Assembly: GCA_900234795.1 (NCBI GenBank)
Contig: LT962688.1
Coordinates: 420,001 to 452,000, forward strand
Direction of reading: 5' to 3'
Length of the DNA stretch: 32,000 nt
Source of the DNA: Methylorubrum extorquens
Lineage (GTDB): Bacteria > Pseudomonadota > Alphaproteobacteria > Rhizobiales > Beijerinckiaceae
Part shown: piece by piece, positions 19,943-32,000 of the stretch
Layout: the number at the start of each line of letters is the position of its first letter
Position numbering within the stretch: position 1 is the first letter of the stretch
Notes under the pieces: model-generated
Databases searched by the model: none
Told to the model about the DNA's origin: nothing
The model's input: the letters and a program-made list of their open reading frames with translations, nothing else
Made by a program: the position numbers and the translations under genes

Positions 19943-20839
19943 ATGAAGGTAAACCACCTCAGACTCGACCGCCTTCGGGAGTTGCCCCTGCCGATCCCCG
20001 ACGAGGGCAGCAAGGAGCAGCGCGGCACGGTCCTCGTAGTCGGTGGACCCGCCGAAGTTCCGGGCGCCGCCTTTCTGGCGGGCGTCGCCACGCTCCGGGC
20101 CGGGGCCGGTCGCCTCCGCATCGCGACCGTGGAGAGCGCCGCATCGGCGATGGCTCTCGCGGTGCCCGAGGCGCGGGTCATCGGCTTTACCGAGACGGAG
20201 GAGGGCGGGATCGACCCGGCCTCGGCCGCGGCACGCCTGCCGGCCTTGGCGGAGCGCTGCAACGCGATCCTGATCGGCCCGGGGCTGAGCGCCGGCGCCA
20301 CGGCCGACGCACTGGTCCACTCGCTTCTTCCGGCTGGAGCCTCCTCGGCGCTCGTGCTCGATGCCGGCGTCATCGCCGGCCTCGGCGCGCAGGCCGGCGC
20401 GGTTCGATCCTGCGATGGCCGCGCGGTGATCACGCCGCATGCCGGCGAGATGGCCCGGCTCCTGGGCATCGACAGAAGCGAGGTTGAAGCCAATCCTCTG
20501 GCGGCAGCTCAGCGCGCTGCCGAAAAGCTCGGATGCGTCGTGATCATGAAGGGCGCGCAGAGCTGGATCGTGCCCCCCTCGGGTGAGCCGTGGCTCTACA
20601 GCGGCGGCGGTGTCGGGCTGGCGACCTCCGGCTCCGGTGATGTCTTGGCGGGCATTGTTGCAGGGCTGCTCGCACGCGGCACGGAGACGACGACAGCGGC
20701 GGCATGGGGGGTCTATCTGCACGGGCAAGCCGGGCAACGACTCGCCGAGCGCATCGGACCAGTCGGCTTCCTGGCACGCGAGATCATCGACGAGGTACCC
20801 GCCATCCTGCGTGACGTCGATGCGGGCCACTCGTCGTAA
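19943..20839 (+). CDS. nnrD: ADP-dependent NAD(P)H-hydrate dehydratase (YjeF C-terminal type)
   Basis: Track ORF starts at TTG 19910; ATG 19943 gives MKVNHLRLDRLRELPLPIPDEGSKEQRGTVLVVGGPAEVPGAAFLAGVATLRAGAG... It has ...AILIGPGL...VITPHAGEMARLLG...VVIMKGAQSWI...LATSGSGDVLAGIVAGLLARG, the carbohydrate-kinase-fold NnrD signature. Confidence 0.85.
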   Translation: MKVNHLRLDRLRELPLPIPDEGSKEQRGTVLVVGGPAEVPGAAFLAGVATLRAGAGRLRIATVESAASAMALAVPEARVIGFTETEEGGIDPASAAARLPALAERCNAILIGPGLSAGATADALVHSLLPAGASSALVLDAGVIAGLGAQAGAVRSCDGRAVITPHAGEMARLLGIDRSEVEANPLAAAQRAAEKLGCVVIMKGAQSWIVPPSGEPWLYSGGGVGLATSGSGDVLAGIVAGLLARGTETTTAAAWGVYLHGQAGQRLAERIGPVGFLAREIIDEVPAILRDVDAGHSS

Positions 20840-20907
20840 ACGTCGGCGCCGGGAACATGGCTAAAACGGCGCGGGTTCTCCCTGACCTCAGATGAGGGAG
20901 CGTAATT

Positions 20908-21075
20908 ATGACGCAATCGGAGCCCGCGAAACCCGGCGATGAAGCACCGCCCGGAACACCCGGAACGGGTGAGAACCTGTGTCCCCGCTGTAGCGGAAGT
21001 GGCCAGATCGAAGCCAAAGCTTGCCCGGACTGCAACGGCACCGGCAAAGTGATCGCCGGCATCGGTGGCGGCTGA
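20908..21075 (+). CDS. 55-aa zinc-ribbon protein with two DnaJ-type CxxCxGxG motifs (not in ORF track)
   Basis: GAGGGAG (20894-20900), 7-nt spacer, ATG 20908: MTQSEPAKPGDEAPPGTPGTGENLCPRCSGSGQIEAKACPDCNGTGKVIAGIGGG, stop TGA 21073-21075. CPRCSGSG and CPDCNGTG are exact CxxCxGxG repeats. Confidence 0.6.
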   Translation: MTQSEPAKPGDEAPPGTPGTGENLCPRCSGSGQIEAKACPDCNGTGKVIAGIGGG

Positions 21076-21154
21076 TCGCGAACGCTGCAAACAGCCGCCC
21101 GCCAAGCGTGTCGGCGCTGCAAAACAGGCTCACGCAGCGCCATCTTTCGTGCTA

Positions 21155-21169
21155 GAACGAAAATAGAAC
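21155..21169. promoter_or_regulatory. alphaproteobacterial LexA (SOS) box, copy 1
   Basis: GAACgaaaataGAAC, an exact GAAC-N7-GAAC direct repeat (complement GTTC-N7-GTTC). Flanks GCTA...AA are identical to those of the box at 27884-27898. It lies 100 nt upstream of the 84-aa gene start at 21269. Confidence 0.7.
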
Positions 21170-21268
21170 AAGCGGGCGGCCGATTTCCGGCTCGGGCTTC
21201 CGTGACCGCTTCGGCCTGCCCGACGCGTGAATGGCGGCCGGCTCGGTCCTGGTGCGGGAGAACCGACG

Positions 21269-21523
21269 GTGACGATGCGGACGACCTACCTCGTGCAGAC
21301 CTTCATTCTGAAGCGCAAACGTCTGTGCCCCGGCGACCAGCAAGTGTCGCCGACGGTGAACGGTGCACTGAAGCGGGCCGAGGCGATGGCCACACGGCTG
21401 CCAGGCACCGCCGCGATCCAGATCGTGGCCGACGACGAAACGGGGGAGTTGGAAAGCGCGACGATTCTCGGCCGGTTCGGCGAGGTGCCGGAAGACTTCG
21501 CCGAGACGCTGCAGGCCGCCTGA
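21269..21523 (+). CDS. 84-aa protein of unrecognised family, paralogue 1 (SOS-box linked)
   Basis: GGGAG (21255-21259), 9-nt spacer, GTG 21269: (M)TMRTTYLVQTFILKRKRLCPGDQQVSPTVNGALKRAEAMATRLPGTAAIQIVADDETGELESATILGRFGEVPEDFAETLQAA. Same length as 28265..28519 and 67/84 identical by hand count. The shared GAGAACC just upstream supports this start over track start 21227. Confidence 0.75.
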   Translation: MTMRTTYLVQTFILKRKRLCPGDQQVSPTVNGALKRAEAMATRLPGTAAIQIVADDETGELESATILGRFGEVPEDFAETLQAA

Positions 21524-21550
21524 CGAAAGTATCGAGAGAAGAGGGATCAC

Positions 21551-21826
21551 ATGGCTTTCAAGCCGAAATCGGCCGCAGAGACGAAAGCGCGCGACCTGGG
21601 TTTGGCGCTCGCACGCATCGCCGAGAACGAGGGCATGCCGGCCCATGTCGGCGTGGATGCTCTGCGTCGCTCCAGCCCGCGCCTGACGCCGCTGGCGATC
21701 GGGCAGATGGTGCGCAAGCACCGCGACATCCTCGAAGAGACGCTGATCGAGCGCGGGCTGACGCTCGTGGATTATGCCGACCAGGGACCGGGACGCGGCA
21801 TGGAGTTCGAGGTCGCCAGCGCCTGA
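21551..21826 (+). CDS. hypothetical protein (91 aa) downstream of paralogue 1
   Basis: AGAGGGA SD-like, then ATG 21551: MAFKPKSAAETKARDLGLALARIAENEGMPAHVGVDALRRSSPRLTPLAIGQMVRKHRDILEETLIERGLTLVDYADQGPGRGMEFEVASA. It starts 27 nt after the preceding stop. Confidence 0.55.
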   Translation: MAFKPKSAAETKARDLGLALARIAENEGMPAHVGVDALRRSSPRLTPLAIGQMVRKHRDILEETLIERGLTLVDYADQGPGRGMEFEVASA

Positions 21827-22001
21827 GGGCGCTGGCGGAACAGGCTGACGTGAAGCTCGCCGGCTTCTTGGCGAGGATGAGAGTTTTTACCGGTCCGATG
21901 CCGGCAGGGCGACGCACGCGACCATCAGGGCGGGTGCACTCCAGGAACGATCACCGCGCGCAGGTCTTGTCCCGGCACTTCGACAGCCTGAGGAGGACCC
22001 C

Positions 22002-22376
22002 GTGGACGATGATCGTGTTTGGTCGTTCGAAAAGAGCCTTTGGACCGGTGACCCGGATCATTACCGCGAACTCGTCGATGACGAGTGCCTGATGGCCTTG
22101 CCGCAGCCGCCCTACGTCTTCGGCGGCGCTCAAGCGATCGAAGCCGTCGCGAACACACCCCGTTGGTCCGGCGTCGAATTCGACGATGGCCGGATCGCGC
22201 GTCCCCAGGAAGGCCTGATCGTCATCGCCTACTCCGTGAAAGCCTCACGGGGCGAAGAGACCTACGAGGCCCATTGCACCTCGACCTACCGCCGGCTGTC
22301 GCACGAGGAATGGCGGGTGGTCCAGCACCAGCAGACCCCGCGCATTCTCGCGCCCGTCGTTGACGAGAAGCGCTGA
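22002..22376 (+). CDS. SnoaL/NTF2-like (DUF4440-type) protein
   Basis: GAGGAGG, then GTG 22002: (M)DDDRVWSFEKSLWTGDPDHYRELVDDECLMALPQPPYVFGGAQAIEAVANTPRWSGVEFDDGRIARPQEGLIVIAYSVKASRGEETYEAHCTSTYRRLSHEEWRVVQHQQTP. Size and pattern are typical of NTF2-like small proteins. Confidence 0.6.
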   Translation: MDDDRVWSFEKSLWTGDPDHYRELVDDECLMALPQPPYVFGGAQAIEAVANTPRWSGVEFDDGRIARPQEGLIVIAYSVKASRGEETYEAHCTSTYRRLSHEEWRVVQHQQTPRILAPVVDEKR

Positions 22377-22449
22377 CGCAGCGGTCACGTGAGAGCGGTC
22401 GCCGACGACAACTCGCGTCGCGATCAACGGCCGAGCACATCGTGAAAGG

Positions 22450-22476
22450 GAGCCGCCTCGGAAGACCGGGCGGCTC
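22450..22476 (+). terminator. possible terminator hairpin after the SnoaL-like gene
   Basis: GAGCCGCC-tcggaagaccg-GGCGGCTC; weak T tract (tcgctctta). Confidence 0.3.
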
Positions 22477-22671
22477 TCGCTCTTATCGAGGCGGTGCAAG
22501 GCCGATGCGCAGAACGCCCTTCAAGCGCGCGCACGTGCGATGCGGGGGCAATTCAGCAAATTCCGTCGGGCGGATCACACACGAACAGCCCTGCGCAGCC
22601 GTCGCTCTCGCGGTCATTCCAGCGCACCTAAGAGTTCGGAAACCGCAGGCTTCCGAGAGCTTGGAAAAGTT

Positions 22672-22720
22672 TGGCTCCCAGAGCCGACCTTGAACCTGCA
22701 ACAAAGCGATGAACAGTCGG
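22672..22720 (-). repeat. decayed tRNA-Asn 3-prime fragment (outer att-type repeat)
   Basis: In tRNA sense: CGACTGTTCATCGCTTTGTTGCAGGTTCAAGGTCGGCTCTGGGAGCCA. It aligns to the copy at 24378-24427 with about 9 substitutions that break the T-arm and the anticodon loop. No D-arm or 5-prime acceptor strand follows. Confidence 0.6.
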
Positions 22721-22895
22721 GTGGAGTGGCTGACTTTTTTGAGAGACGGCAACACGGAGAGGGTGATTCGCTGAGGCGAGATTCACCCTGCGGTAACATC
22801 CTGTCTCGCTTGCGCGCGATCGCCGGGATAGGCTGGCGGCAAGGTTGAACTCCAACGCCTCGCACTCCGCCAAGCCCTCCTGCCTCAGCATGACC

Positions 22896-23198
22896 TCAAT
22901 GCAAATATTGGGGGCTTGGCGCGTTGAGATGGGCGCTGATCGTCACTTCCAAGATGCTGAGCTTCAAGCGCAGCTGAAGAATGGTCGGCGCGACTAACTC
23001 TAGATCAACGCCATCGATCGCCACCTCATGAAGCTCGGTGAGCAATCGATAGATCTCGACCAAATCGTCATCGGATATCAGGTGAAAACCGTCCTGCCTC
23101 AACGCATTGTGCGCTCTCACCAGCGCAAGCACCCGTTCAACGAGAAGGTCCAAATCGGCGAAAACGATCAGTGTTTCTGTTGCTTTTTTGAGATCCAT
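22896..23198 (-). CDS. hypothetical protein (100 aa), island remnant cargo
   Basis: Track ORF; MDLKKATETLIVFADLDLLVERVLALVRAHNALRQDGFHLISDDDLVEIYRLLTELHEVAIDGVDLELV...; helical, leucine-rich, GC far below the genome average; no family recognised. Confidence 0.4.
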   Translation of the reverse strand: MDLKKATETLIVFADLDLLVERVLALVRAHNALRQDGFHLISDDDLVEIYRLLTELHEVAIDGVDLELVAPTILQLRLKLSILEVTISAHLNAPSPQYLH

Positions 23199-23310
23199 AA
23201 TTCCACGGCTGGCGACGCATTTCTGCGAGGCACAACCGTCGTCAACGCGGGTTACGAAGAGTTATGGAAGGCCGCAGGCGCCGTTAAATATAATTTCAGG
23301 ATGTATCATT

Positions 23311-23556
23311 CTATAAAATCAACATAGATCCGTCCGTGCGATGACGCACCTCAGAGAAATTGGGCAAATACAAACTCAAATTGAGTAGTTGCCCGCGCCA
23401 ATATTCAATCAAAGACTCAAAAATCACTTCAAATAACTTGATCCTACCAGATTTCAAAACATACTCGGCATTCTCCGCTACGCGTTTATCGAACTGGCCC
23501 ACCGACTCGTTCGGACCCGTCGAGCGCTCACGACTGCACGTCTTGCCGACGAGCAC
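23311..23556 (-). CDS. doubtful ORF in AT-rich DNA (81 aa)
   Basis: Track ORF only. The C-terminal half lies in DNA of about 30-45% GC. No SD or motif recognised. It may be a gene fragment. Confidence 0.2.
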   Translation of the reverse strand: MLVGKTCSRERSTGPNESVGQFDKRVAENAEYVLKSGRIKLFEVIFESLIEYWRGQLLNLSLYLPNFSEVRHRTDGSMLIL

Positions 23557-23739
23557 GCGACCGGCGATCCCCGCACTCGATCAGAGCCTCACGCAGGAGA
23601 GAATGACCCTGTCCGTCGTTGTTCGACTTGGACGGGTCCTTGGCCCCCACCGAGCACCGGGCGCAGGTCCTGAATCGTCTCGGCAAGGAGAAGGACTGGC
23701 GCGGATCTTACGCGGCTTGCGACCGGGACGAGCCCTGCG

Positions 23740-24242
23740 CCCGATCGTTCGCACGTTGCTGGCGCTCCACCACACCGGCGCCAACATTGAAATTTGGTCC
23801 GGCTGATCCGACGAGGTGAAGGACAAGACGACGGCTTAGCTTGCTGATCATGGGCTGGGACCCATCCCGATTCGGATGCGCCCGCGCGGGCGACCGCCAG
23901 CCCTGGTGTTCGAGGATCGCGCATCCATGGTGGCCCGGCCAATGCCAGAAACGAACGGCCACGAGGTCGCCGAGCATGACCTCAGCCACGACCCTGAACG
24001 GCTCGCCGAGATGCCGCTGGCGTCGGCCCCTCGTCATCGACGAACGCACCGGCCTCCCATGGCGGCGCTCGCACTTCAGCCGCACGTACCGCGAGTTCGC
24101 GCGTGCCTCCGGCTGGCCGGACGGCATCTGGAACATGAACAGCAGGGCAGGGGCGATGAGTGAGGCTTGCGAGGCTGGGGCGGTGCCGGACAACGTGATG
24201 CGCACCGCGACGCCCACACCGATATCGACAACGATGCTCTAA
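23740..24242 (+). pseudogene. tyrosine-recombinase (integrase) pseudogene, C-terminal part, frameshifted
   Basis: Integrase-like pieces are split over at least three frames: ...TLLALHHTGANIEIWSG* (compare LLALxTGxRxGExxxLxWSD), ...PPALVFEDR..., and RPLVIDERTGLPWRRSHFSRTYREFARASGWPDGIWNMNSRAGAMSEACEAGAVPDNVMRTA... (second catalytic Arg region). The His and Tyr segments are missing or out of frame. It ends 135 nt from the tRNA-Asn fragment. This is a motif-level call only. Confidence 0.4.
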
Positions 24243-24377
24243 AACCGCGGACCGATGGTTCCGTCGGGCCGCGCTACGAACGGCGTGGCGAAAAGCGAAG
24301 CTCGGCGGCTAAAAACGGCCGAGGAACAACGGCGGCAACACGCCTCTGCCGTAGATCCGCTATGTGATTGAGAGATT

Positions 24378-24427
24378 TGGCTCCCCGAGCAGGACTCGAA
24401 CCTGCGACAAAGCGATTAACAGTCGGG
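24378..24427 (-). repeat. tRNA-Asn(GTT) 3-prime fragment (att-type repeat), not an intact tRNA
   Basis: In tRNA sense: CGA-CTGTTAA-TCGCT-TTGTC-GCAGG-TTCGAGT-CCTGC-TCGGGGAG-CCA. That is an anticodon loop with GTT, a variable loop, a perfect T-arm with the GGTTCGAGTCC box, a 3-prime acceptor strand and CCA. Upstream sequence (caatcacatcaccc) cannot form the D-arm, the 5-prime acceptor strand or the full anticodon stem. Confidence 0.7.
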
Positions 24428-24457
24428 GTGATGTGATTGATTTCATTGGATGACGTT

Positions 24458-24501
24458 ACCGCGGGGAGGGGCTTACGCTCTTACGGAAATCTCCCCGCGG
24501 T
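24458..24501. other. perfect 11-bp hairpin 30 nt inside the element B end
   Basis: ACCGCGGGGAG-gggcttacgctcttacggaaat-CTCCCCGCGGT. A weaker hairpin (AGGGTGA...TCACCCT, 22760-22789) sits at the equivalent offset from the decayed fragment of remnant A. Confidence 0.6.
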
Positions 24502-24547
24502 GACCGGCAGGCTCGCCCGATCCGGCGCCACGGGATAGGCTCGGGAA

Positions 24548-24814
24548 ATGGCTGATTTCTCCCCCACCGTCGGCGAACTCTTCAAGGCCAACGTCGTCAC
24601 CCATGACGATCTGAACGCGCTGATTGATGCCGTTCTCGCGGGCCGGATGAATGTGCAGGAGGAACTCGCCGAGGGCTACACGCTCGACGTGGCAGCCGCC
24701 GTGAAGGCAAACGCCTTCGCTACCGCTGTTTTGCGCGACAAGACGAGCACGACTGGTGCTAGGCGCACCGCCACCCGCACAGCGATCCTGCTGGCGCGTG
24801 CGCAGAAGGCGTGA
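24548..24814 (+). CDS. hypothetical protein (88 aa)
   Basis: Track ORF; MADFSPTVGELFKANVVTHDDLNALIDAVLAGRMNVQEELAEGYTLDVAAAVKANAFATAVLRDK...; weak SD; no family recognised. Confidence 0.4.
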   Translation: MADFSPTVGELFKANVVTHDDLNALIDAVLAGRMNVQEELAEGYTLDVAAAVKANAFATAVLRDKTSTTGARRTATRTAILLARAQKA

Positions 24815-24854
24815 GGAAGACCGACCGGTAAGCCTGAAGCAACTCAGCCACCCT

Positions 24855-25280
24855 ATGCCGTCGGCCCGTTCTCAGCCGGCAGCCGTGATGCTACTTCCCG
24901 AACTTGCGCCCGATCATCTCCCGCCTGAGGCCGCCGAGTGGCGGAAAGCCTTCGGTGCCCTGCGCCCAACCTCCTCACCGTGCCGCTACCTCGGCGTCAC
25001 CGCCTGGGCGAACATCTACGAGGCCTGCACCGATTTCATCGAGCGCTTCGGCGACGAGGCTGTACGCCTGGGCTGGAGCGCGCCGCAGATCTTCGGTGTC
25101 CACCCCCAGCATGGCACGCTGCGCATAGACTGGTGCGGGGTGATGATCACCGGCGGGAACAAGGCGATCGGCATCGAGCCCAACCGGATCCTGTTCGGCA
25201 ATGTCAGCGGCTACCGGGACACGCCCGGCGCGCCGACCGGCATTCCGATCTGGGAGTTCGCGGCGCGACAGAAAGGATGA
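24855..25280 (+). CDS. hypothetical protein (141 aa)
   Basis: ATG 24855 within track ORF 24756..25280: MPSARSQPAAVMLLPELAPDHLPPEAAEWRKAFGALRPTSSPCRYLGVTAWANIYEACTDFIERFGDEAVRLGWSAPQIFGVHPQHGTLRIDWCGVMITGGNKAIGIEPNRILFGN... Coding-like composition; no clear SD, so the start is uncertain. Confidence 0.45.
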   Translation: MPSARSQPAAVMLLPELAPDHLPPEAAEWRKAFGALRPTSSPCRYLGVTAWANIYEACTDFIERFGDEAVRLGWSAPQIFGVHPQHGTLRIDWCGVMITGGNKAIGIEPNRILFGNVSGYRDTPGAPTGIPIWEFAARQKG

Positions 25281-25730
25281 TGCTCCACGACCGCAAAGAC
25301 ACGGCCGCTACACAGATTGAGCAACGTCTCGCATCGGGCGAGGTAGACCCGAGCTAGCAGCCGATCGCGGCGCTTTGGTATCTGTCTATCCAGATGCGAC
25401 GCCTGCCAGACGAGGCATGATCTCACTGCGTGACCTCAATGCAATCCGAATGAACCTGCGCATTAAAACACGACCGACGATGGCCGGGCGAATTATAAGG
25501 TATCTATATAAATCTTTGAACTTCTCTCAAAATATCTTTGTTACCCACCTTACGCATAGCTCATGGATTAGCCGATGGCTGATATACCTACAGGTTCTGC
25601 ATAATATCGAGCAACGCTGTTCCGTACCGCATTATGGTGCGTTGCACCCAGAGATTACCGCGTCGCACAAATTCCGTGGTTCAATCTCTCATCGGTCGCC
25701 GTCACTGGCCGGCCACCCCGGAGACGATCC

Positions 25731-25961
25731 ATGCGTACGATGCAGCTTCTTTCCCTCGCCGCTCTCGCATCTGTCACCGTGGCGAGTTCCGCCATGGCCG
25801 ACGAGAGCATCCACCTGACGCCGCCGCTGTTCCGTGAACAGGCCCGCGCCACCGCGTCTGTCCGCCCGGCGTCCGAGCTGACGACCACACCTCACATCAC
25901 GGCTGTGGCCCCCGCCAGCCGCAAGATCGTGGCCGACGCCGCCGCGGCCTCTGCTCGCTAA
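25731..25961 (+). CDS. small secreted protein (76 aa)
   Basis: GGAGA, 6-nt spacer, ATG 25731: MRTMQLLSLAALASVTVASSAMA signal peptide, then DESIHLTPPLFREQARATASVRPASELTTTPHITAVAPASRKIV... Confidence 0.5.
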   Translation: MRTMQLLSLAALASVTVASSAMADESIHLTPPLFREQARATASVRPASELTTTPHITAVAPASRKIVADAAAASAR

Positions 25962-25973
25962 GTCCTCGGTGAT

Positions 25974-26006
25974 GGGGCCGTCGCCGGATTTGGCACCGAT
26001 GGCCCC
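25974..26006. terminator. imperfect hairpin between convergent 25731 gene and umuC
   Basis: GGGGCCGTCGCC-ggattt-GGCaCCGAtGGCCCC followed by TTCCCTC. Confidence 0.3.
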
Positions 26007-26070
26007 TTCCCTCAGCATTGACTATCAATCTTCGGACTATGCGCTTCCCCCGATACCGTCGGCACGGTCT

Positions 26071-27411
26071 TCACCTCAAAGCAGCGTAAGCCACGGGTAG
26101 CTCGTCGACCTGCGTCGTGTAGCGCGGCGTGCGCATTTCGAACTTCGTCGACCAGGTGCGCCGCTGCTGCGCCAGACCGGCGCGCGCCGGTACCACGCTG
26201 CCGCGGCCGAAGCGGGCATTGCAGGCGTCCAGCGCACCCATGAGCCGCGTCGAGCGCTCGCGGTCGAGCCGGCCGATCAGCGCCCGCTGCGAGGCCGCCA
26301 GCGGCACGAGATCGACCGTGACTACCCCGGCCTTCGAGTAGCGCCAGGGCGGGCTGCCCTGCTCGCGCCAGGTGCGGGCCACGCCATGCATTGCCGCCGA
26401 GATCAGCGCCAGCGTGTCGTTGGTCGCCTCCGGCAGCGTCACCACCGTCGAGACCGAGCGCATCGGCTCGCCTCGGTCGTGTTCGCTCGTGTGGTAGAAG
26501 ACGGTGATGTGGTCGGTACCGAGGCCTTCACGCCGCAGCTTTTCGCCGAGGCGCGTTGCATGGGCAGCCACTGCTTGCTCCAGCTCGGCCCGTTCCGTCA
26601 CCCGGCCGGAGAATGAGCGCGTCACCGCACACCCCTTACGGCGAGCCGGCACGAGTTCGAGCCCGAGGCAGGACACGCCTCGCAGCTCGTGGATCATACG
26701 CTCACCCACCACCGTCAGCGCCTTGCGCACCGGGCGCGGGTCGATGTCGCGCAGGTCCGCCACTGTATCGATGCCCATGGCCTCGAGCTTCGGCAACGAG
26801 GCTCGGCCGACGCCCCACAGCTCGCCGACATGGATGCGGCAGAGCCAGTGCTCGTAGGCGGCGGGCTCGGTCAGGTCGCAGACGCCGTCGAGCTCAGGCA
26901 CCGTCTTGGCGATGTGGTTGGCGAGCTTGGCCAGCGTCTTGGTCGGGCCGATGCCGACGCAGGTCGGGATGCCCGTCCAGGCCCGCACGGTAGCGCGGAT
27001 ATCGCGGGCCAGCGCCACGCGATCCCGGCGCACGAAGCCGGTCAGGTCGAGGAAACTCTCGTCGATCGAGTAGATTTCCACGTCCGGCGTGGCGTCGCGA
27101 TAGATCGCGTTGATGCGCGCCGACATGTCCCCGTAGAGCGTGTAATTCGACGAGAATACGCGAACGCCCTGTGCCTCGCAGAACCCGCGGATCTTGAAAT
27201 AGGGGTCGCCCATCTTGATCCCGAGCGCCTTGGCCTCGGGCGTGCGGGCGATGGCGCAGCCATCGTTATTGCTCAGCACGATCACCGGCACGCGGGCGAG
27301 CTTGGCGTCGAACACGCGCTCGCACGAGCAGTAGAAGCTGTTGCCGTCGATGAGCGCGAGGGCGCGGCCGCCGCCGATCCGGTCGCGCTGACGGGCCTCG
27401 GCGTTGCTCAT
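26071..27411 (-). CDS. umuC: translesion DNA polymerase V catalytic subunit UmuC (Y-family)
   Basis: [74 protein letters not shown]...[12 protein letters not shown]...[17 protein letters not shown]. The start overlaps the umuD stop (ATGA at 27408-27411). Confidence 0.9.
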
Positions 27412-27875
27412 CGGCCCTGTCCGCCGCGGGCGACGTGCCAGCGGATGGTGAAGCGGACCACGCCCCAGACATCGACCTCGGCTAGTTCCTCGAGCGCGTA
27501 GGCGGGCAGGTCGGCATTGTCGAAGGAGAGGTGCGCGCGGTTGCCCTCGACGACCATGCGCTTGATCGACATCTCACCGTCGACCGCCGCCACGACGACG
27601 CTGCCGTGCGCAGGTTTGAGGCTGCGATCGACGCAGGCGAGATCCCCGTCGAAGATCCCAGCATCGCGCATCGAATCGCCAGCGATGCGCCAGAGGAAGG
27701 TGGCCGGCGGGTTCGGCACGAGCCAGCGCGGCAGTTCCAGTGCGCCTTCTAGAAAGTCGTCGGCGGGAGAGGGGAAGCCCGCGCAGAGCGCTTGGCCCAT
27801 CAGCGGCACACGAACTGTGGAAAAGCCCTCCTGCGGTAGCTCTGCGACCGTGTGCAGCCTCACTCGAGTCCCCAT
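27408..27875 (-). CDS. umuD: UmuD-like S24 peptidase (LexA C-terminal-domain type)
   Basis: ...[33 protein letters not shown]...[49 protein letters not shown]: an AG-type cleavage region, then catalytic Ser (GDSM) and Lys (SIKR). The start is either ATG 27875 or GTG 27863, which has GGGGA 5 nt upstream. Confidence 0.88.
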
Positions 27876-27883
27876 CTGAGCTA

Positions 27884-27898
27884 GAACAGAAAGAGAAC
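27884..27898. promoter_or_regulatory. alphaproteobacterial LexA (SOS) box, copy 2, in the umuD / small-gene-operon divergent spacer
   Basis: GAACagaaagaGAAC, an exact GAAC-N7-GAAC. Flanks GCTA...AA are identical to copy 1. It lies 8 nt from the umuD ATG codon and 95 nt from ATG 27994 on the other strand. Confidence 0.8.
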
Positions 27899-27993
27899 AA
27901 ACAGCAGGCGCGTGGCGGGTTCAATCGGCTCTGTGCGCCAAGCGCAAACGGCTGTGTGCGCCTGTGGATAACGGGGACAGAGGGGTGATGACG

Positions 27994-28254
27994 ATGTCGC
28001 AGGAGCGCTGCCACTTCCACTGCACGGACGGCCGGGATGTCGTCTTCGACCTGCAGGGGCGGGCCGTCGCAGAGCACGACCTGCGTCCGGTCTGCGCCAG
28101 CGTGGCGGCCGAGGTGATGCAGGGCTGCGCTGCTCCGGTCGACTGGTCAGCCTGGATCGTCGAAGTGCATGACGCCTACGGTCAGCACGTGATGACGTTC
28201 AGCTTCGACGAGATCGCGAACGAGGTCGGCATCCGGCCGGCGCTGGCAGCTTGA
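27994..28254 (+). CDS. DUF6894-like small protein (86 aa)
   Basis: GAGGGG, 8-nt spacer, ATG 27994: MSQERCHFHCTDGRDVVFDLQGRAVAEHDLRPVCASVAAEVMQGCAAPVDWSAWIVEVHDAYGQHVMTFSFDEI... This matches my recollection of the DUF6894 pattern (xxYxFHLxDGxxxxxDxxGxE...WxxxVxDxxGxxVxxxxF). The track ORF begins at GTG 27964. Confidence 0.5.
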   Translation: MSQERCHFHCTDGRDVVFDLQGRAVAEHDLRPVCASVAAEVMQGCAAPVDWSAWIVEVHDAYGQHVMTFSFDEIANEVGIRPALAA

Positions 28255-28264
28255 GGAGAGAACC

Positions 28265-28519
28265 ATGGCCATGAAGACGACGTTCCTGGTCCAAACCTTC
28301 GTGCTCAAGCGGAAGCGGCTCGTCCCCGGAGACCGGCAGATCTCGACGACGAGCAGCGCAGCGTTGAAACGGGCCGAGGCGATGGCTGCGCGCATGCCAG
28401 GCACGGCCGCCCTGCAGATCGTGGCCGACGACGAGACGGGCGAACTGGAGAGCGCGACGATCCTCGGGCAATTCGGTGAGGTGCCGGACGATTTCGCCGA
28501 GAGCTTGCAGGCGGCCTGA
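28265..28519 (+). CDS. 84-aa protein of unrecognised family, paralogue 2 (SOS-box linked)
   Basis: GAGGAGAG, then ATG 28265: MAMKTTFLVQTFVLKRKRLVPGDRQISTTSSAALKRAEAMAARMPGTAALQIVADDETGELESATILGQFGEVPDDFAESLQAA. 67/84 identical to 21269..21523. Confidence 0.8.
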   Translation: MAMKTTFLVQTFVLKRKRLVPGDRQISTTSSAALKRAEAMAARMPGTAALQIVADDETGELESATILGQFGEVPDDFAESLQAA

Positions 28520-28521
28520 CC

Positions 28522-28734
28522 ATGCGGACCATCGTCGAACTCGACAACGGCAGCGCCGCGGCCATCAGCGACGGCGGCAAGGATCTCGCGGACCTCCTGG
28601 CCCGCGCGCTCATGACGGGAAGCGACGCCGCGTGGGACAAGTTGCGGCCGTATGGGATCAGCCGAATCGTTGAGCGTCACCCGACCGAGCCAGCGAAGGT
28701 TGTTGTCGGCGAACGCGCGATCGCGGTCCGGTAG
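28522..28734 (+). CDS. hypothetical protein (70 aa)
   Basis: ATG 2 nt after the preceding stop (tgaccATG): MRTIVELDNGSAAAISDGGKDLADLLARALMTGSDAAWDKLRPYGISRIVERHPTEPAKVVVGERAIAVR. Confidence 0.55.
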   Translation: MRTIVELDNGSAAAISDGGKDLADLLARALMTGSDAAWDKLRPYGISRIVERHPTEPAKVVVGERAIAVR

Positions 28735-28738
28735 GCCT

Positions 28739-28936
28739 ATGACCGACGACCAAACCGCCGCCGAGCTGCGCGGCCTGCTCCGGTTCGCGCAGGGCCTCGG
28801 TCTGGACGAGGCGACCGTGCGGGAGATCTACGAGGCCGTCGGGCGTGAGGCCATGGCGACAGGCGCCAGCGACGACACCCGCATGGCCGAGTTGCGGAAG
28901 CGGATGCTCGCGGCGGCGAGAGGAGGCTGGGACTAG
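28739..28936 (+). CDS. hypothetical protein (65 aa)
   Basis: ATG 28739, 4 nt after the preceding stop, inside track ORF 28652..28936: MTDDQTAAELRGLLRFAQGLGLDEATVREIYEAVGREAMATGASDDTRMAELRKRMLAAARGGWD. Confidence 0.5.
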   Translation: MTDDQTAAELRGLLRFAQGLGLDEATVREIYEAVGREAMATGASDDTRMAELRKRMLAAARGGWD

Positions 28937-28984
28937 AAAAACCTGCTGCGGCTGAGATGGGCGGGGCCGCCTCACGGCGAGGAG

Positions 28985-30550
28985 CTAGCGCCCCATGCAG
29001 ACGTAGCTGATCGATTGCGGTGCGTTTGATGCCGCAATCGTCATGGCAATGCCTTGGCGAGAAGTCTCGTAAGCAGGTGCATGCATTCCTCCGAGCGAGG
29101 AAGATACAACACAGTCGGGGATATCATTGTAGGTCGCTGCAAAGCGGATAGTGCAGCCAGCTTCGCCGGATTGCATTGAAATGGTCCCGTGAAGATCATT
29201 GGCTGACTTGGATAGCTTCGACGCTCCACAGCCGCTTATGGATAGTTTTGGCCCCGGCCGGGCCGAGAGGTGCCTTCCCACATCCACATCACCCGAGTTG
29301 TATGCGGCCAGAGAATAGCTTGACCCGGAATTTGTCGCGCCAAGCGTAAAAGCCTGTATTGCGCCATTCCATCCGAACGACGCTCGTCCGCTCCAACTCA
29401 GAAATGTCGTCTGAGGTAGAACTGCGAAGTTGCCGCTTGCGAGAGTCGCTCGACTGAAATCCAGTCCACTGTCGTGCTTTCCGTCTGCGCGTAGAACGGC
29501 AAACGAGTCGCTTTGATCGTACAAGAAGGCGATGGAGTGCCGCCTCTGAGCAGCACTCTTGAGCGTTACGTCTGCATTCGTGCTGTCGAAAATCACAGCA
29601 TCCTTGACCACGGAGCCGACATCGGTCGACGGCCCGCCGCTCCAGTAGTCACCGTAATGTGCGCCATACGGATTGGCGCCGCCACTGTTGACTGCGCCCG
29701 AGCCAACATACCGATAGGCGAGCATAGGGAACGTGCCAGGCCCTTGGCCGCCGATGAACGAGCACGCCATGAAGTACGGCGAGCCGATATCGCTGTCCTT
29801 GTTCCCATTGCTGCAGTCGCGCTCCTCGCCGAAAATCGTCACGTCGCCTACTCCGGGCAGCACGGTCGTGTTGGTGACGAAGCCCCACCCCGCACCCGTT
29901 CCAGGCTCGAAGTTGGCGGCGATCGAAAAGGCACTCTTCCCGTTGTTCGCGCCTGGGCCGAGATAGGCCCACACGATGGAGCCATCTCGAAGGTTGGTAC
30001 CGTTTCCGGTCGGGCCCTCCCCACGGGGCGCTGAAGTGCCGGCCGACTGCGCGCGGTAAAGACAGCCGGGCACGGTCTGCGTTGCGCCTCCATCGACTGT
30101 CACAGAGCACTTGGAATTGAGGACAGCGACCGTCTCGCCAGCTTCGTAGCGAGTGCCTGGCTTCCAGTATACAACCTTGCCTTTATCGCTTGTGAAGTTG
30201 AGGTGAAATCCGACCTCCTGTGCAGTTGCATCCTTCTGCGTTCGGACATTGACAAGGATTGGTGTCAGCAAATGCGGGCCATCGAAACACCCGCCGACTG
30301 AGCAGAAGTCGATCATAGGCCCATTCGGATGTACGAAAATCCCAAGCGGCTGCTCCCTGCTCTTCTCGCCATGGACACGCATCAGCGAAGGGGCGCCCAG
30401 GGGGAGGATCGATATCGCTCGATCGACTTGTCCTGATGGCGCGCTTGCCGGGTCCGAAGCGTTCTGCAGTGGCTGAGCGGAAATCGTCCCTGCCGTGGAG
30501 GCGACGGCGAGCAGGCTGTAAAGCCCTACCTGTGCGGGGCGAGTGAGCAT
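28985..30550 (-). CDS. secreted 521-aa protein of unknown function (Gly/Ser/Asn/Thr-rich, probably beta-rich)
   Basis: MLTRPAQVGLYSLLAVASTAGTISA-QP Sec-type signal peptide. No motif recognised; 13 Cys in total. GC is clearly below its surroundings (64/120 = 53% hand-counted at 29041-29160). It has its own upstream region after a strong terminator. Confidence 0.7.
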   Translation of the reverse strand: MLTRPAQVGLYSLLAVASTAGTISAQPLQNASDPASAPSGQVDRAISILPLGAPSLMRVHGEKSREQPLGIFVHPNGPMIDFCSVGGCFDGPHLLTPILVNVRTQKDATAQEVGFHLNFTSDKGKVVYWKPGTRYEAGETVAVLNSKCSVTVDGGATQTVPGCLYRAQSAGTSAPRGEGPTGNGTNLRDGSIVWAYLGPGANNGKSAFSIAANFEPGTGAGWGFVTNTTVLPGVGDVTIFGEERDCSNGNKDSDIGSPYFMACSFIGGQGPGTFPMLAYRYVGSGAVNSGGANPYGAHYGDYWSGGPSTDVGSVVKDAVIFDSTNADVTLKSAAQRRHSIAFLYDQSDSFAVLRADGKHDSGLDFSRATLASGNFAVLPQTTFLSWSGRASFGWNGAIQAFTLGATNSGSSYSLAAYNSGDVDVGRHLSARPGPKLSISGCGASKLSKSANDLHGTISMQSGEAGCTIRFAATYNDIPDCVVSSSLGGMHAPAYETSRQGIAMTIAASNAPQSISYVCMGR

Positions 30551-30650
30551 CGTGACGCTTTCGACGGTTCCGGGACCAAATTCAGGCGCAAGACATCTCC
30601 TAGAGAGAGCCGGCAGGGCAAGGCGTCCAGCCCGCTAAAGCGTCGGCACG

Positions 30651-30681
30651 AAAAAAAGCCCCGAGGCCGAAGCCCCGGGGC
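30651..30681 (-). terminator. rho-independent terminator ending the phage-type membrane-protein cassette
   Basis: Sense strand: GCCCCGGGGCttcgGCCTCGGGGC followed by TTTTTTT; 30 nt downstream of the stop of 30711..31067. Confidence 0.8.
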
Positions 30682-30710
30682 GGTATGTGGACGGATGTGG
30701 CTAGCGGGGA

Positions 30711-31067
30711 TCAGTCGGCCCGGCGCCCCGTGATCGCCTGGAGCATTTCCCGGCGGGTCGCGGCCATTTCCTCTCGCATCGAGGTCACGAGGTCGTCGAT
30801 GCGGCGCTCCATCCGGGTGATGACGTCGCCGGTCACGTAGGTTCGGGCAACTTCGACCTTGAAGTTGTGCAGGGCCTCGTTCTGTGCCGCGATCTGGATC
30901 TTCACGGCCGCCATGTCGATCGTCAGGGGGGACACCGCGTCCTTCGTGCCGGCTCGCAGCTTGCCGATGACCCAATCCGCCCCCTTGCCGAGGGCGAAGA
31001 GGAAGGCAGCGAGCGCCACGATCTGCGCCCAGGTAATCGGGCCGGGCGAGAGGAACGAGGTGTCCAT
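30711..31067 (-). CDS. phage-type membrane protein: N-terminal TM plus coiled coil (DUF2730-like architecture)
   Basis: MDTSFLSPGPITWAQIVALAAFLFALGKGADWVIGKL... then heptad-like ...IAAQNEALHNFKVEVARTYVTGDVITRMERRIDDLVTSMREEMAATRREMLQAI. It starts 4 nt after the upstream stop. Confidence 0.45.
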   Translation of the reverse strand: MDTSFLSPGPITWAQIVALAAFLFALGKGADWVIGKLRAGTKDAVSPLTIDMAAVKIQIAAQNEALHNFKVEVARTYVTGDVITRMERRIDDLVTSMREEMAATRREMLQAITGRRAD

Positions 31068-31071
31068 AGGA

Positions 31072-31488
31072 TCAGGCCTTCAGCAGGCGGGCGGCGCCGG
31101 CGCGGGCCAGCGTCGTGAGTGGCGAGGAGATGAAGAAGGCCGTCAGGATCGTGGCCTCGATCGGCACGTACTCAGGCGGGAGCGGCTGAACGTTCCAGCC
31201 GAGATCGAACGTCTTCGTCAGGCAAGCCGCCCCGAAGTGGATCGCGGGCGGGATGCCAATGCCGTAGATCAGGCCCTTGAAGGCCGGCGCGATCGCCGCC
31301 TTCGCCTGATTGGCCGCCATCTCAGCCTGGACGACCTGCACCGCGACGTCGCGCTGCGTGTTCTGGCCGTTCTCCATCCCCTTGAGGATGGGCTGCAGCA
31401 CCGAGTTGCCGAACACCTTGATCAGGCCGGAGCCGACGGCGCCGAGCGCAGAGCCGATCGGGTTCGAGAGCCAGCCGAGGAGGCTCAT
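31072..31488 (-). CDS. putative holin-like membrane protein (138 aa)
   Basis: ATG 31488 overlaps the upstream stop (ATGA): MSLLGWLSNPIGSALGAVGSGLIKVFGNSVLQPILKGMENGQ...GLIYGIGIPPAIHFGAACL...IEATILTAFFISSPL. A glycine-rich N-terminus plus hydrophobic segments resembles the 3-TM holins of alphaproteobacterial phages and GTAs. Architecture-level call only. Confidence 0.35.
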   Translation of the reverse strand: MSLLGWLSNPIGSALGAVGSGLIKVFGNSVLQPILKGMENGQNTQRDVAVQVVQAEMAANQAKAAIAPAFKGLIYGIGIPPAIHFGAACLTKTFDLGWNVQPLPPEYVPIEATILTAFFISSPLTTLARAGAARLLKA

Positions 31489-31751
31489 CGCGGCGGCTCC
31501 CGTGCCGGCAGGGTGGCGAGCTTCGTCGCGTAGGCACGCGCCGCGAGCCGAGCCACCGCGAGGAAGGTCGCCACCTTCGCGCCCGGCAGCCACTCCGGCA
31601 GCAGCGGCGTGAGATCGACGCCCGGCAGCGCATCGAGGACGTCGGGCAGCGCCATGACGCCCGCGAGCAGGTAGACGCGCTTGCCCGAGGCCGCGCGCCA
31701 GCAGCGGCGCAGGCCGAGGCGGGCCCGTGCGAGGAAGGGACGGGGCGCCAT
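31485..31751 (-). CDS. hypothetical protein (88 aa) in the phage-type cassette
   Basis: ATG 31751 inside track ORF 31485..31970, 3 nt after the upstream stop: MAPRPFLARARLGLRRCWRAASGKRVYLLAGVMALPDVLDALPGVDLTPLLPEWLPGAKVATFLAVARLAARAYATKL... Confidence 0.4.
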   Translation of the reverse strand: MAPRPFLARARLGLRRCWRAASGKRVYLLAGVMALPDVLDALPGVDLTPLLPEWLPGAKVATFLAVARLAARAYATKLATLPAREPPR

Positions 31752-31754
31752 GGT

Positions 31755-32000
31755 CAGCCTTTCCGGAACGCGGTGTGGATCAGGTCGTAGAGCCCGGTGA
31801 GACCCAAGCGGACCGCGCCGCCGGTGGCCTGGACCCCGGAACGAACAAGCCCGCCGGTGGGGGCGGGCTGCGGAGCAGGTGAGGGCGGTGGGGCTGTCAT
31901 CGGCGCCAGCGGATCCGGCGCCGGCTCGCCCATGCCCGGCGACCAGGGCGTGTCCTTGATCTTCGACCACTTGGCGAAGGCCGCGGCGAGCTTGGTGTGG
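31755..32000 (-). CDS. C-terminal end of a gene whose start lies right of the window
   Basis: Not in the ORF track (no start in the window). Hand translation: ...HTKLAAAFAKWSKIKDTPWSPGMGEPAPDPLAPMTAPPPSPAPQPAPTGGLVRSGVQATGGAVRLGLTGLYDLIHTAFRKG, stop TGA at 31757-31755. Confidence 0.4.

Follow-up and report, generated by a model that had tools for sequence, protein, structure and literature searches.

Putative LexA operators and an uncharacterised family of 84-residue proteins in Methylorubrum extorquens and related bacteria

The published SOS box of Alphaproteobacteria is the direct repeat GTTC-N7-GTTC, which is equivalent to GAAC-N7-GAAC and is the basis on which the sites described here were identified. 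This study concerns one such box and the small gene that follows it, p84a, in a window of 32,000 nucleotides (nt) of Methylorubrum extorquens DNA (GenBank assembly GCA_900234795.1, contig LT962688.1, positions 420,001 to 452,000 of the forward strand; coordinates given without a locus name are positions in this window). The family to which the 84-amino acid (aa) product belongs is referred to as p84; it is a widespread but uncharacterised group of acidic α/β proteins of ~80 aa in Hyphomicrobiales. Small proteins with which it can be compared include DinI/ImpC, an 81-aa acidic modulator of RecA that is regulated by LexA; on plasmids, impC lies ahead of impAB, a pair of genes resembling umuDC. 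SulA and Caulobacter SidA are also small and LexA-controlled, and are SOS-induced inhibitors of cell division. SidA is reportedly a 29-aa membrane protein, and the SOS regulons of Alphaproteobacteria are said to include lineage-specific small proteins. In Acinetobacter, DdrR is a protein of 78-81 aa whose gene is divergent from umuDAb, the two sharing one operator, and it acts as a co-repressor which aids the binding of UmuDAb (PMC7273328, PMC11332147). Acinetobacter is without LexA, UmuDAb itself being the repressor, and DdrR has been reported to be unique to that genus (PMC7273328, PMC11332147).

The boxes at p84 genes have the same half-sites and the same spacing as the operators of the LexA regulons of Caulobacter, Rhizobium, Sinorhizobium and Rhodobacter. 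In those regulons the operator lies in or beside the core promoter, as is predicted for p84a. The motif studied here likewise accompanies lexA and umuDC. Unlike the published box, the p84 sites follow an extended consensus, TAGAAC...GAACAA(A)CAG, and unlike the known genes of LexA regulons the p84 family is unnamed, is modelled in neither Pfam nor NCBIfam and is the subject of no paper that we could find. LexA repression through GAAC-N7-GAAC is already known, whereas the family that it would regulate here is undescribed. The likeness to ddrR-umuDAb is one of size and gene layout. At p84b, the second copy in the window, and at 24 other loci, a single operator lies between a gene of ~80 aa and a divergently oriented gene of the umuD family, and p84, like ddrR, would be a member of a damage regulon. 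The difference is that p84 loci carry a normal LexA box, and that p84a has no umuD neighbour. DinI/ImpC resembles p84 in size, acidity, predicted LexA control and linkage to umuDC-type genes, but its topology is β-α-β-β-α as against β-β-α-β-β-α in the p84 model, and the two are not homologous. SulA and SidA differ in that the predicted p84 structure is a globular domain of a soluble protein, and nothing ties p84 to cell division.

We consider it probable that the box at 21155-21169 is a LexA operator lying over the core promoter of a p84a-p91 operon, and that p84 is a small SOS effector; of these two points, it is the regulation that has good support in silico. The features on which this reading is built are as follows.

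20908-21075, + strand: upstream gene encoding a conserved CXXC zinc ribbon, co-directional with p84a
21155-21169, + strand: first box, putative LexA operator GAAC-N7-GAAC (GAACGAAAATAGAAC), found by a motif scan of the window
21269-21523, + strand: p84a, open reading frame (ORF) for an acidic (isoelectric point 5.0) 84-aa protein of an uncharacterised family
21551-21826, + strand: p91, ORF for a 91-aa protein, 27 nt after p84a, with AGAGGGA before its ATG
27884-27898, + strand: second box, putative LexA operator (GAACAGAAAGAGAAC), between the divergent umuDC genes and the DUF6894-p84b operon

The two boxes are the only matches to GAAC-N7-GAAC in the 32 kb; they lie 6729 nt apart, both on the + strand, and have identical flanks (GCTAGAAC-N7-GAACAA). 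An earlier sequence-only reading of this DNA had described a box with the same flanks as the umuD box some 6.7 kb from it, followed by ORFs of 84 and 91 aa and preceded by a co-directional gene, and each of these elements is present, the upstream ORF being a real conserved gene. p84a starts with GTG, 99 nt past the box, and has GGGAGAA 6 nt upstream of the start; from the 27-nt gap we predict that p91 is its putative co-transcribed partner. The paralogy proposed in the same reading between p84a and the ORF at 28265-28519 (p84b) was borne out, the two proteins sharing 80% identity and 93% similarity along their full 84 residues (E 1e-51). The G+C content at third codon positions of p84a and p91 is 0.81-0.83, and the ratio of nonsynonymous to synonymous substitution (dN/dS) of p84a is 0.05-0.10 when compared with its orthologues and 0.13 when p84a is compared with p84b. 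Purifying selection on p84 is thus strong, and both ORFs are genuine coding genes, in keeping with the confident AlphaFold2 models of their products. A dS of ~1.0 between the window paralogues shows them to be old. In a search for repeats within the window, the duplication did not reach beyond the 255 nt of coding sequence, and no ungapped match extended it upstream.

Close homologues of p84 numbered 176, all of them labelled 'hypothetical', and every one with a named source came from Methylobacterium or Methylorubrum, often with several copies per genome. We searched for a box within 400 nt upstream of p84 in a sample of 80 genomic loci from these two genera. Of the 80 loci, 45 had a perfect box, and each of these boxes pointed the same way as its gene; the rest of the flanking sequence, 573 kb in all, held only 8 same-orientation boxes. 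Box presence followed the gene context. All 24 loci with umuC-umuD divergent from p84 and the box between them, with or without DUF6894 (the arrangement of p84b), had the box, as did 20 of 23 with the order box-p84-p91 but no umuD (the arrangement of p84a), and 1 of 33 with neither umuD nor p91 nearby. The eight syntenic orthologues of the p84a locus (L001-L008; nnrD, zinc ribbon, box, p84, p91, DUF4440) all carry a perfect box at -104 to -125, so that a finding which would have spoken against the sequence-only reading, orthologues mostly without the box, was not made. On alignment of their whole upstream regions with MAFFT the invariant columns were TG.TAGAAC..A....GAAC, while the spacer, the leader and the upstream flank varied. 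Motif, conservation, orientation, gene contexts and the coding status of the ORFs are in this sense direct in silico observations.

The same association was observed outside the genus. When 1.84 billion representative proteins were searched with a profile, the result was 201 p84 clusters at 50% identity, including members from Bosea, Aurantimonas and Neisseria bacilliformis, and tblastn added copies on Rhizobium chromids. Each of the 13 readable loci from outside Methylobacterium had one perfect box in the same orientation (13/13). In Bosea it lies at -36 to -41 (7/7), in Rhizobium (R. gallicum and R. sullae) at -33, where TTGACT precedes it by 13 nt (2/2), and in two metagenomic contigs at -65 and -193 (2/2); in two contigs with a homologue of the Aurantimonas cluster it lies 29 nt before an S24-peptidase gene in an operon with the p84 homologue (2/2). 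The p84 homologues of these loci are only 33-45% identical to p84a, which argues that the association between box and gene is old. Since the box is also kept where umuDC is absent (20/23 loci with p91, 7/7 in Bosea, 2/2 in Rhizobium and 4/4 other contigs), the LexA wiring of p84 would be no accident of its adjacency to umuDC. Outside the genus, too, the neighbours of p84 are DNA-damage genes. In Bosea, an operon that ends in a gene for an SOS-response-associated peptidase (SRAP, PF02586) is divergent from p84. It consists of small unknown genes followed by the SRAP gene (L081/L082 269-1793; L087 1430-2927), with a single box between operon and p84, which suggests a shared SOS operator. Genes for ATP-dependent DNA ligase lie near the p84 homologue in two loci. 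The S24 repressor, ParB_N and P22-like gene of the loci L091 and L088 give these a phage- or element-like character.

The wiring is nevertheless recurrent rather than universal as judged from these sequences. The earlier proposal that LexA control is part of the function of the family holds to the extent that the box is kept without umuDC nearby; it does not extend to the 32 of 33 copies with neither umuD nor p91, which have no box within 4 kb, and in the box-less copies no site was found within 1 kb even when one mismatch was allowed. In four of the box-less loci the next gene downstream encodes an unannotated protein of ~150 aa (MTDLCMDA..VLFANDDWQLLPEGLEHRATGYFI) with no Pfam or PHROG match. 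This gene is preceded by GAAC-N7-GAAC and then GTTC-N7-GTTC, ~49 nt apart, and may be another candidate SOS gene. The paired sites are at the following positions.

L024, 4264-4327
L034, 4264-4327
L040, 4283-4345
L045, 4288-4351

Three features surround the first box and bear on the promoter of p84a.

21121-21133, + strand: conserved block AAAACAGGCTCAC upstream of the box, kept in the class A orthologues (the Methylorubrum p84a type) and in the umuD-linked locus L010
21150-21158, + strand: TGCTAGAAC, putative extended -10-like promoter element overlapping the first half-site
21170-21268, + strand: p84a 5' leader, poorly conserved apart from the Shine-Dalgarno sequence GGGAGAA at 21256-21262

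An E. coli-type scan of 20800-22500 for promoters and terminators gave no sigma-70 promoter and no terminator. TGCTAGAAC looks like an extended -10, so that operator and core promoter may overlap, and the TTGACT of the Rhizobium loci lies upstream of the box there. The segment TAGAAC is found at nearly all of the 50 aligned sites, and the GCTA flank shared by the two window boxes is therefore no evidence of a recent duplication; it is probably due to an extended operator or to a -10-like element that overlaps the box. The block AAAACAGGCTCAC is the reverse complement of the first umuD codons in umuD-linked loci (V-S-L-F in L010), and there is no conservation farther upstream. It may be the -35-like region of the p84 promoter or the relic of a lost divergent umuD start (GTGAGCC, - strand). 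A hairpin ahead of the p84a Shine-Dalgarno sequence is weak, with a covariation term of only -0.43 kcal/mol in an alignment and consensus fold of eight orthologues. Box-less paralogues retain TTTCGTGCTAGG at the position of the -10-like element. In nine of them (L014, L023, L029, L032, L033, L039, L042, L046 and L048) the sequence (C)TTTCGTG(C/G/A)TA(G/A)G is kept ~60-70 nt upstream of p84, and corresponds to 21144-21154 in the window, immediately before and overlapping the box. These loci look like the same promoter after loss of the LexA half-sites, with TAGAACGAAAATAGAAC replaced by TAGGTGCGCTCCG.

As a control for the motif in this group, the lexA gene of Methylobacterium bullatum encodes an N-terminal DNA-binding domain 83% identical to that of S. 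meliloti LexA, and is preceded by GAACCCTTGCAGAACACTTCCAGAAC, a GAAC-N7-GAAC-N7-GAAC triplet in which two perfect boxes overlap, one at -97 and one at -86. On the M. aquaticum plasmid pMaq22A_1p we noticed a truncated LexA-like ORF of ~108 aa (L098 1501-1830). It comprises the N-terminal DNA-binding domain only, which shares 56% identity with the N-terminus of S. meliloti LexA, and lacks the S24 domain; if expressed, such a protein would bind LexA boxes and yet be non-cleavable.

The second box belongs to a larger module, which lies beyond a break in the conservation of the chromosome.

22880/22881: junction between conserved backbone (left, with p84a) and strain-variable island (right, with umuDC-p84b), from blastn against L094-L096 and L006
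26071-27411, - strand: umuC, ORF divergent from the second box
27408-27875, - strand: umuD, ORF divergent from the second box
27964-28254, + strand: DUF6894 (PF21834) gene, first of a tightly packed operon
28265-28519, + strand: p84b, second gene of that operon
28522-28734, + strand: 70-aa ORF, third gene of the operon
28739-28936, + strand: 65-aa ORF, last gene of the operon

A layout with DUF6894 before p84 and the box at -343 to -381 was observed in eight loci; a literature search on DUF6894 returned nothing relevant. On the umuD strand, TTGAAC is present at 27919-27924 (-), with GGTCAA(G)/GTTCAAT equivalents in class B loci. A conserved TTGAC(C)/TTGAAC element 17 nt from the box-overlapping TTTGTT could plausibly serve as the umuD promoter, whose -10 the LexA box would then cover.

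Synteny with three M. extorquens-group genomes ends at the junction. To its left, 11269-22880 matches CP021054.1 at 99.9% identity, and more than 20 complete genomes encode the exact p84a protein. The gene order pst-phoU ... nnrD, zinc ribbon, p84a, p91, DUF4440 is common to the M. extorquens group. Synteny and gene order thus place p84a on the core chromosome, which settles in favour of a chromosomal origin one of the two alternatives left by the sequence-only reading. Its placing of a tRNA-Asn fragment at 22672 was not confirmed, as ARAGORN found no tRNA and Rfam gave no tRNA at E<=1 in 21000-32000, although a break in synteny near the claimed site does exist. The Rfam scan of the window gave nothing at gathering thresholds; a weak match to RcsR1, a rhizobial small RNA, at 22446-22543 (-), between DUF4440 and the junction (27 bits against a gathering threshold of 60, E 0.036), is probably due to chance. 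To the right of the junction (22881-26070) the GC content is lower (0.56-0.65) and the sequence is a mosaic between strains. p84a lies ~1 kb from this variable hotspot, which in M. rhodesianum is occupied by umuDC; in the nearest genome, CP021054.1, no umuDC sequence aligned in the 10 kb downstream of p84a.

The AlphaFold2 model of p84 (predicted local distance difference test, pLDDT, 90) shows a β-β-α-β-β fold with a C-terminal helix, and p84 is thus predicted to be a soluble globular domain. Neither p84 nor p91 had a match in Pfam, NCBIfam, PHROGs or PADLOC. Thirty-eight members of the p84 family gave no Pfam match at E<=0.05, DinI (PF06183) included, and p84 matched no PDB sequence profile. 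Foldseek against viral structures returned only weak matches to uncharacterised phage proteins, and a tblastn search of 50,697 phage genomes with p84 gave none at all. Two proposed relationships were rejected. A relationship to DUF6894 was given 0.06% probability by hhalign against nine DUF6894 sequences, with no Pfam match. Homology to DinI was given 0.3% by hhalign against an E. coli DinI sequence, and no DinI was among the top 50 Foldseek matches in the PDB. For a p84-p91 type II toxin-antitoxin pair there was no Pfam, NCBIfam or PADLOC match to a known toxin or antitoxin family, and p91 lies directly downstream of p84 in only 25 of the 80 loci. The downstream partners are small and differ between genera, which suggests that p84 works on its own.

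The model of p91 (pLDDT 89) has a winged-helix-like topology. Winged-helix domains head its Foldseek list without reaching significance (E>0.1), and PDB sequence profiles gave chance-level matches only (E ~1). We found 198 homologues of p91, and among the 120 listed every one with a named source was from Methylobacterium or Methylorubrum. Many NCBI and UniRef records name the family 'adenylosuccinate synthase'. With no Pfam or NCBIfam match and a winged-helix-like predicted topology, this name looks like a propagated mis-annotation.

On our reading, in the undamaged cell LexA bound to the direct repeat at 21155-21169 would block RNA polymerase. Upon DNA damage, RecA-stimulated self-cleavage of LexA would free the promoter, and p84a and p91 would be made. 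p84 would then act as a stand-alone SOS effector which binds a damage-tolerance protein, such as a partner of the UmuD, UmuC or RecA type. The effector role is suggested by the recurrent linkage of p84 to umuDC, S24 peptidase, SRAP and ligase genes, together with the analogy to ddrR-umuDAb and DinI/ImpC. LexA binding, induction by damage, the exact promoter and the molecular activity of p84 are all points that we infer from sequence.

Several results weigh against this reading. The number of boxes in the window is at chance level (0.74 expected, and two or more in 21 of 100 shuffles), so the two sites alone are not significant and significance comes only from the comparative analysis. In that analysis the binomial P of ~1e-79 overstates the independence of the loci, which are phylogenetically related, and the box counts cover exact half-site matches only. 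The 32 box-less copies imply that p84 also functions outside LexA control. Of two recA controls, a copy on an M. aquaticum megaplasmid has a one-mismatch site at best and a plasmid-borne Bosea copy has no box; both are copies on secondary replicons, and this control is equivocal and weaker than that of lexA. Lastly, the fold and family searches identified no partner or activity for p84, the best Foldseek match in the PDB (E 0.36, Rubisco small-subunit-like domains, template modelling score ~0.4) being taken as noise.

Three other explanations have to be weighed against a LexA-controlled effector. If p84, with p91 or other partners, were a module of mobile elements, an SOS-triggered antirepressor or a toxin-antitoxin-like pair of islands and prophages, one would understand its multiple copies per genome, the position of p84b in a strain-variable island, the phage- or element-like loci L091 and L088, and the small variable partners, p91 with its winged-helix-like topology among them. 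We regard this as unlikely, since p84a-p91 belongs to the core chromosome and its synteny is conserved, p84 has no partner that is kept throughout, and neither the 50,697 phage genomes nor PHROGs nor PADLOC held a match, no toxin or antitoxin family being found. The box at 21155 could also be a non-functional relic of a umuD-box-p84 module, left behind after loss of umuDC, with p84a now constitutive. The upstream region of class A loci does align with the intergenic region of the umuD-linked L010 type, including GGCTCAC, the first umuD codons in L010. From this alignment the p84a locus may indeed descend from such a module after umuDC loss, and the umuDC of M. rhodesianum at the same hotspot fits with this. 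A dead box is nonetheless very unlikely, because its half-sites are invariant in all eight orthologues despite a coding dS of 0.45-0.70 and diverged leaders and flanks, and boxes are kept in the umuD-free p84-p91 loci as well as in the Bosea and Rhizobium loci without umuDC.

It is just as hard to credit that the motif is mainly a promoter element, the -10-like GCTAGAAC, preserved by promoter constraint and not by LexA. The conservation of TG.TAGAAC and the retention of TTTCGTGCTAGG in the same place by box-less paralogues would both be expected of such an element, but a -10 does not account for the second GAAC that each of the 58 sites has at exactly 7 nt, nor for the triplicate motif before lexA or the occurrence of the motif at umuDC in 24 of 24 loci; we hold this explanation to be highly improbable. 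As overlap of operator and promoter is the usual LexA arrangement, a promoter element at this position is in any case compatible with a LexA operator.

LexA targets beyond a few model Alphaproteobacteria are poorly mapped, and we found no SOS regulon study or transcriptome for Methylobacterium or Methylorubrum in the literature, although these are abundant, UV-exposed bacteria of leaf surfaces. What is gained here is a strongly conserved, unnamed family of small proteins which Pfam does not model, which has no relative of solved structure and in which LexA wiring recurs; a close physical association of p84 with umuDC around one shared operator; and a natural set of p84 paralogues, with and without LexA wiring, that can be compared. 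Going further, and only as a tentative and rather doubtful proposal, p84 might represent a new class of Hyphomicrobiales SOS effector that binds UmuD/UmuD', UmuC or RecA and tunes translesion synthesis or SOS shut-off, an independent counterpart of DinI/DdrR, with the box-less paralogues supplying a basal, damage-independent pool. Should p84 turn out to be no modulator, the annotation value would remain, in the form of a candidate SOS gene and a correction of the 'adenylosuccinate synthase' label of p91. If it is true that p84 modulates Pol V or RecA, this would be an independent invention of DinI/DdrR-type control, and would have a bearing on stress-induced mutagenesis in plant-associated bacteria.

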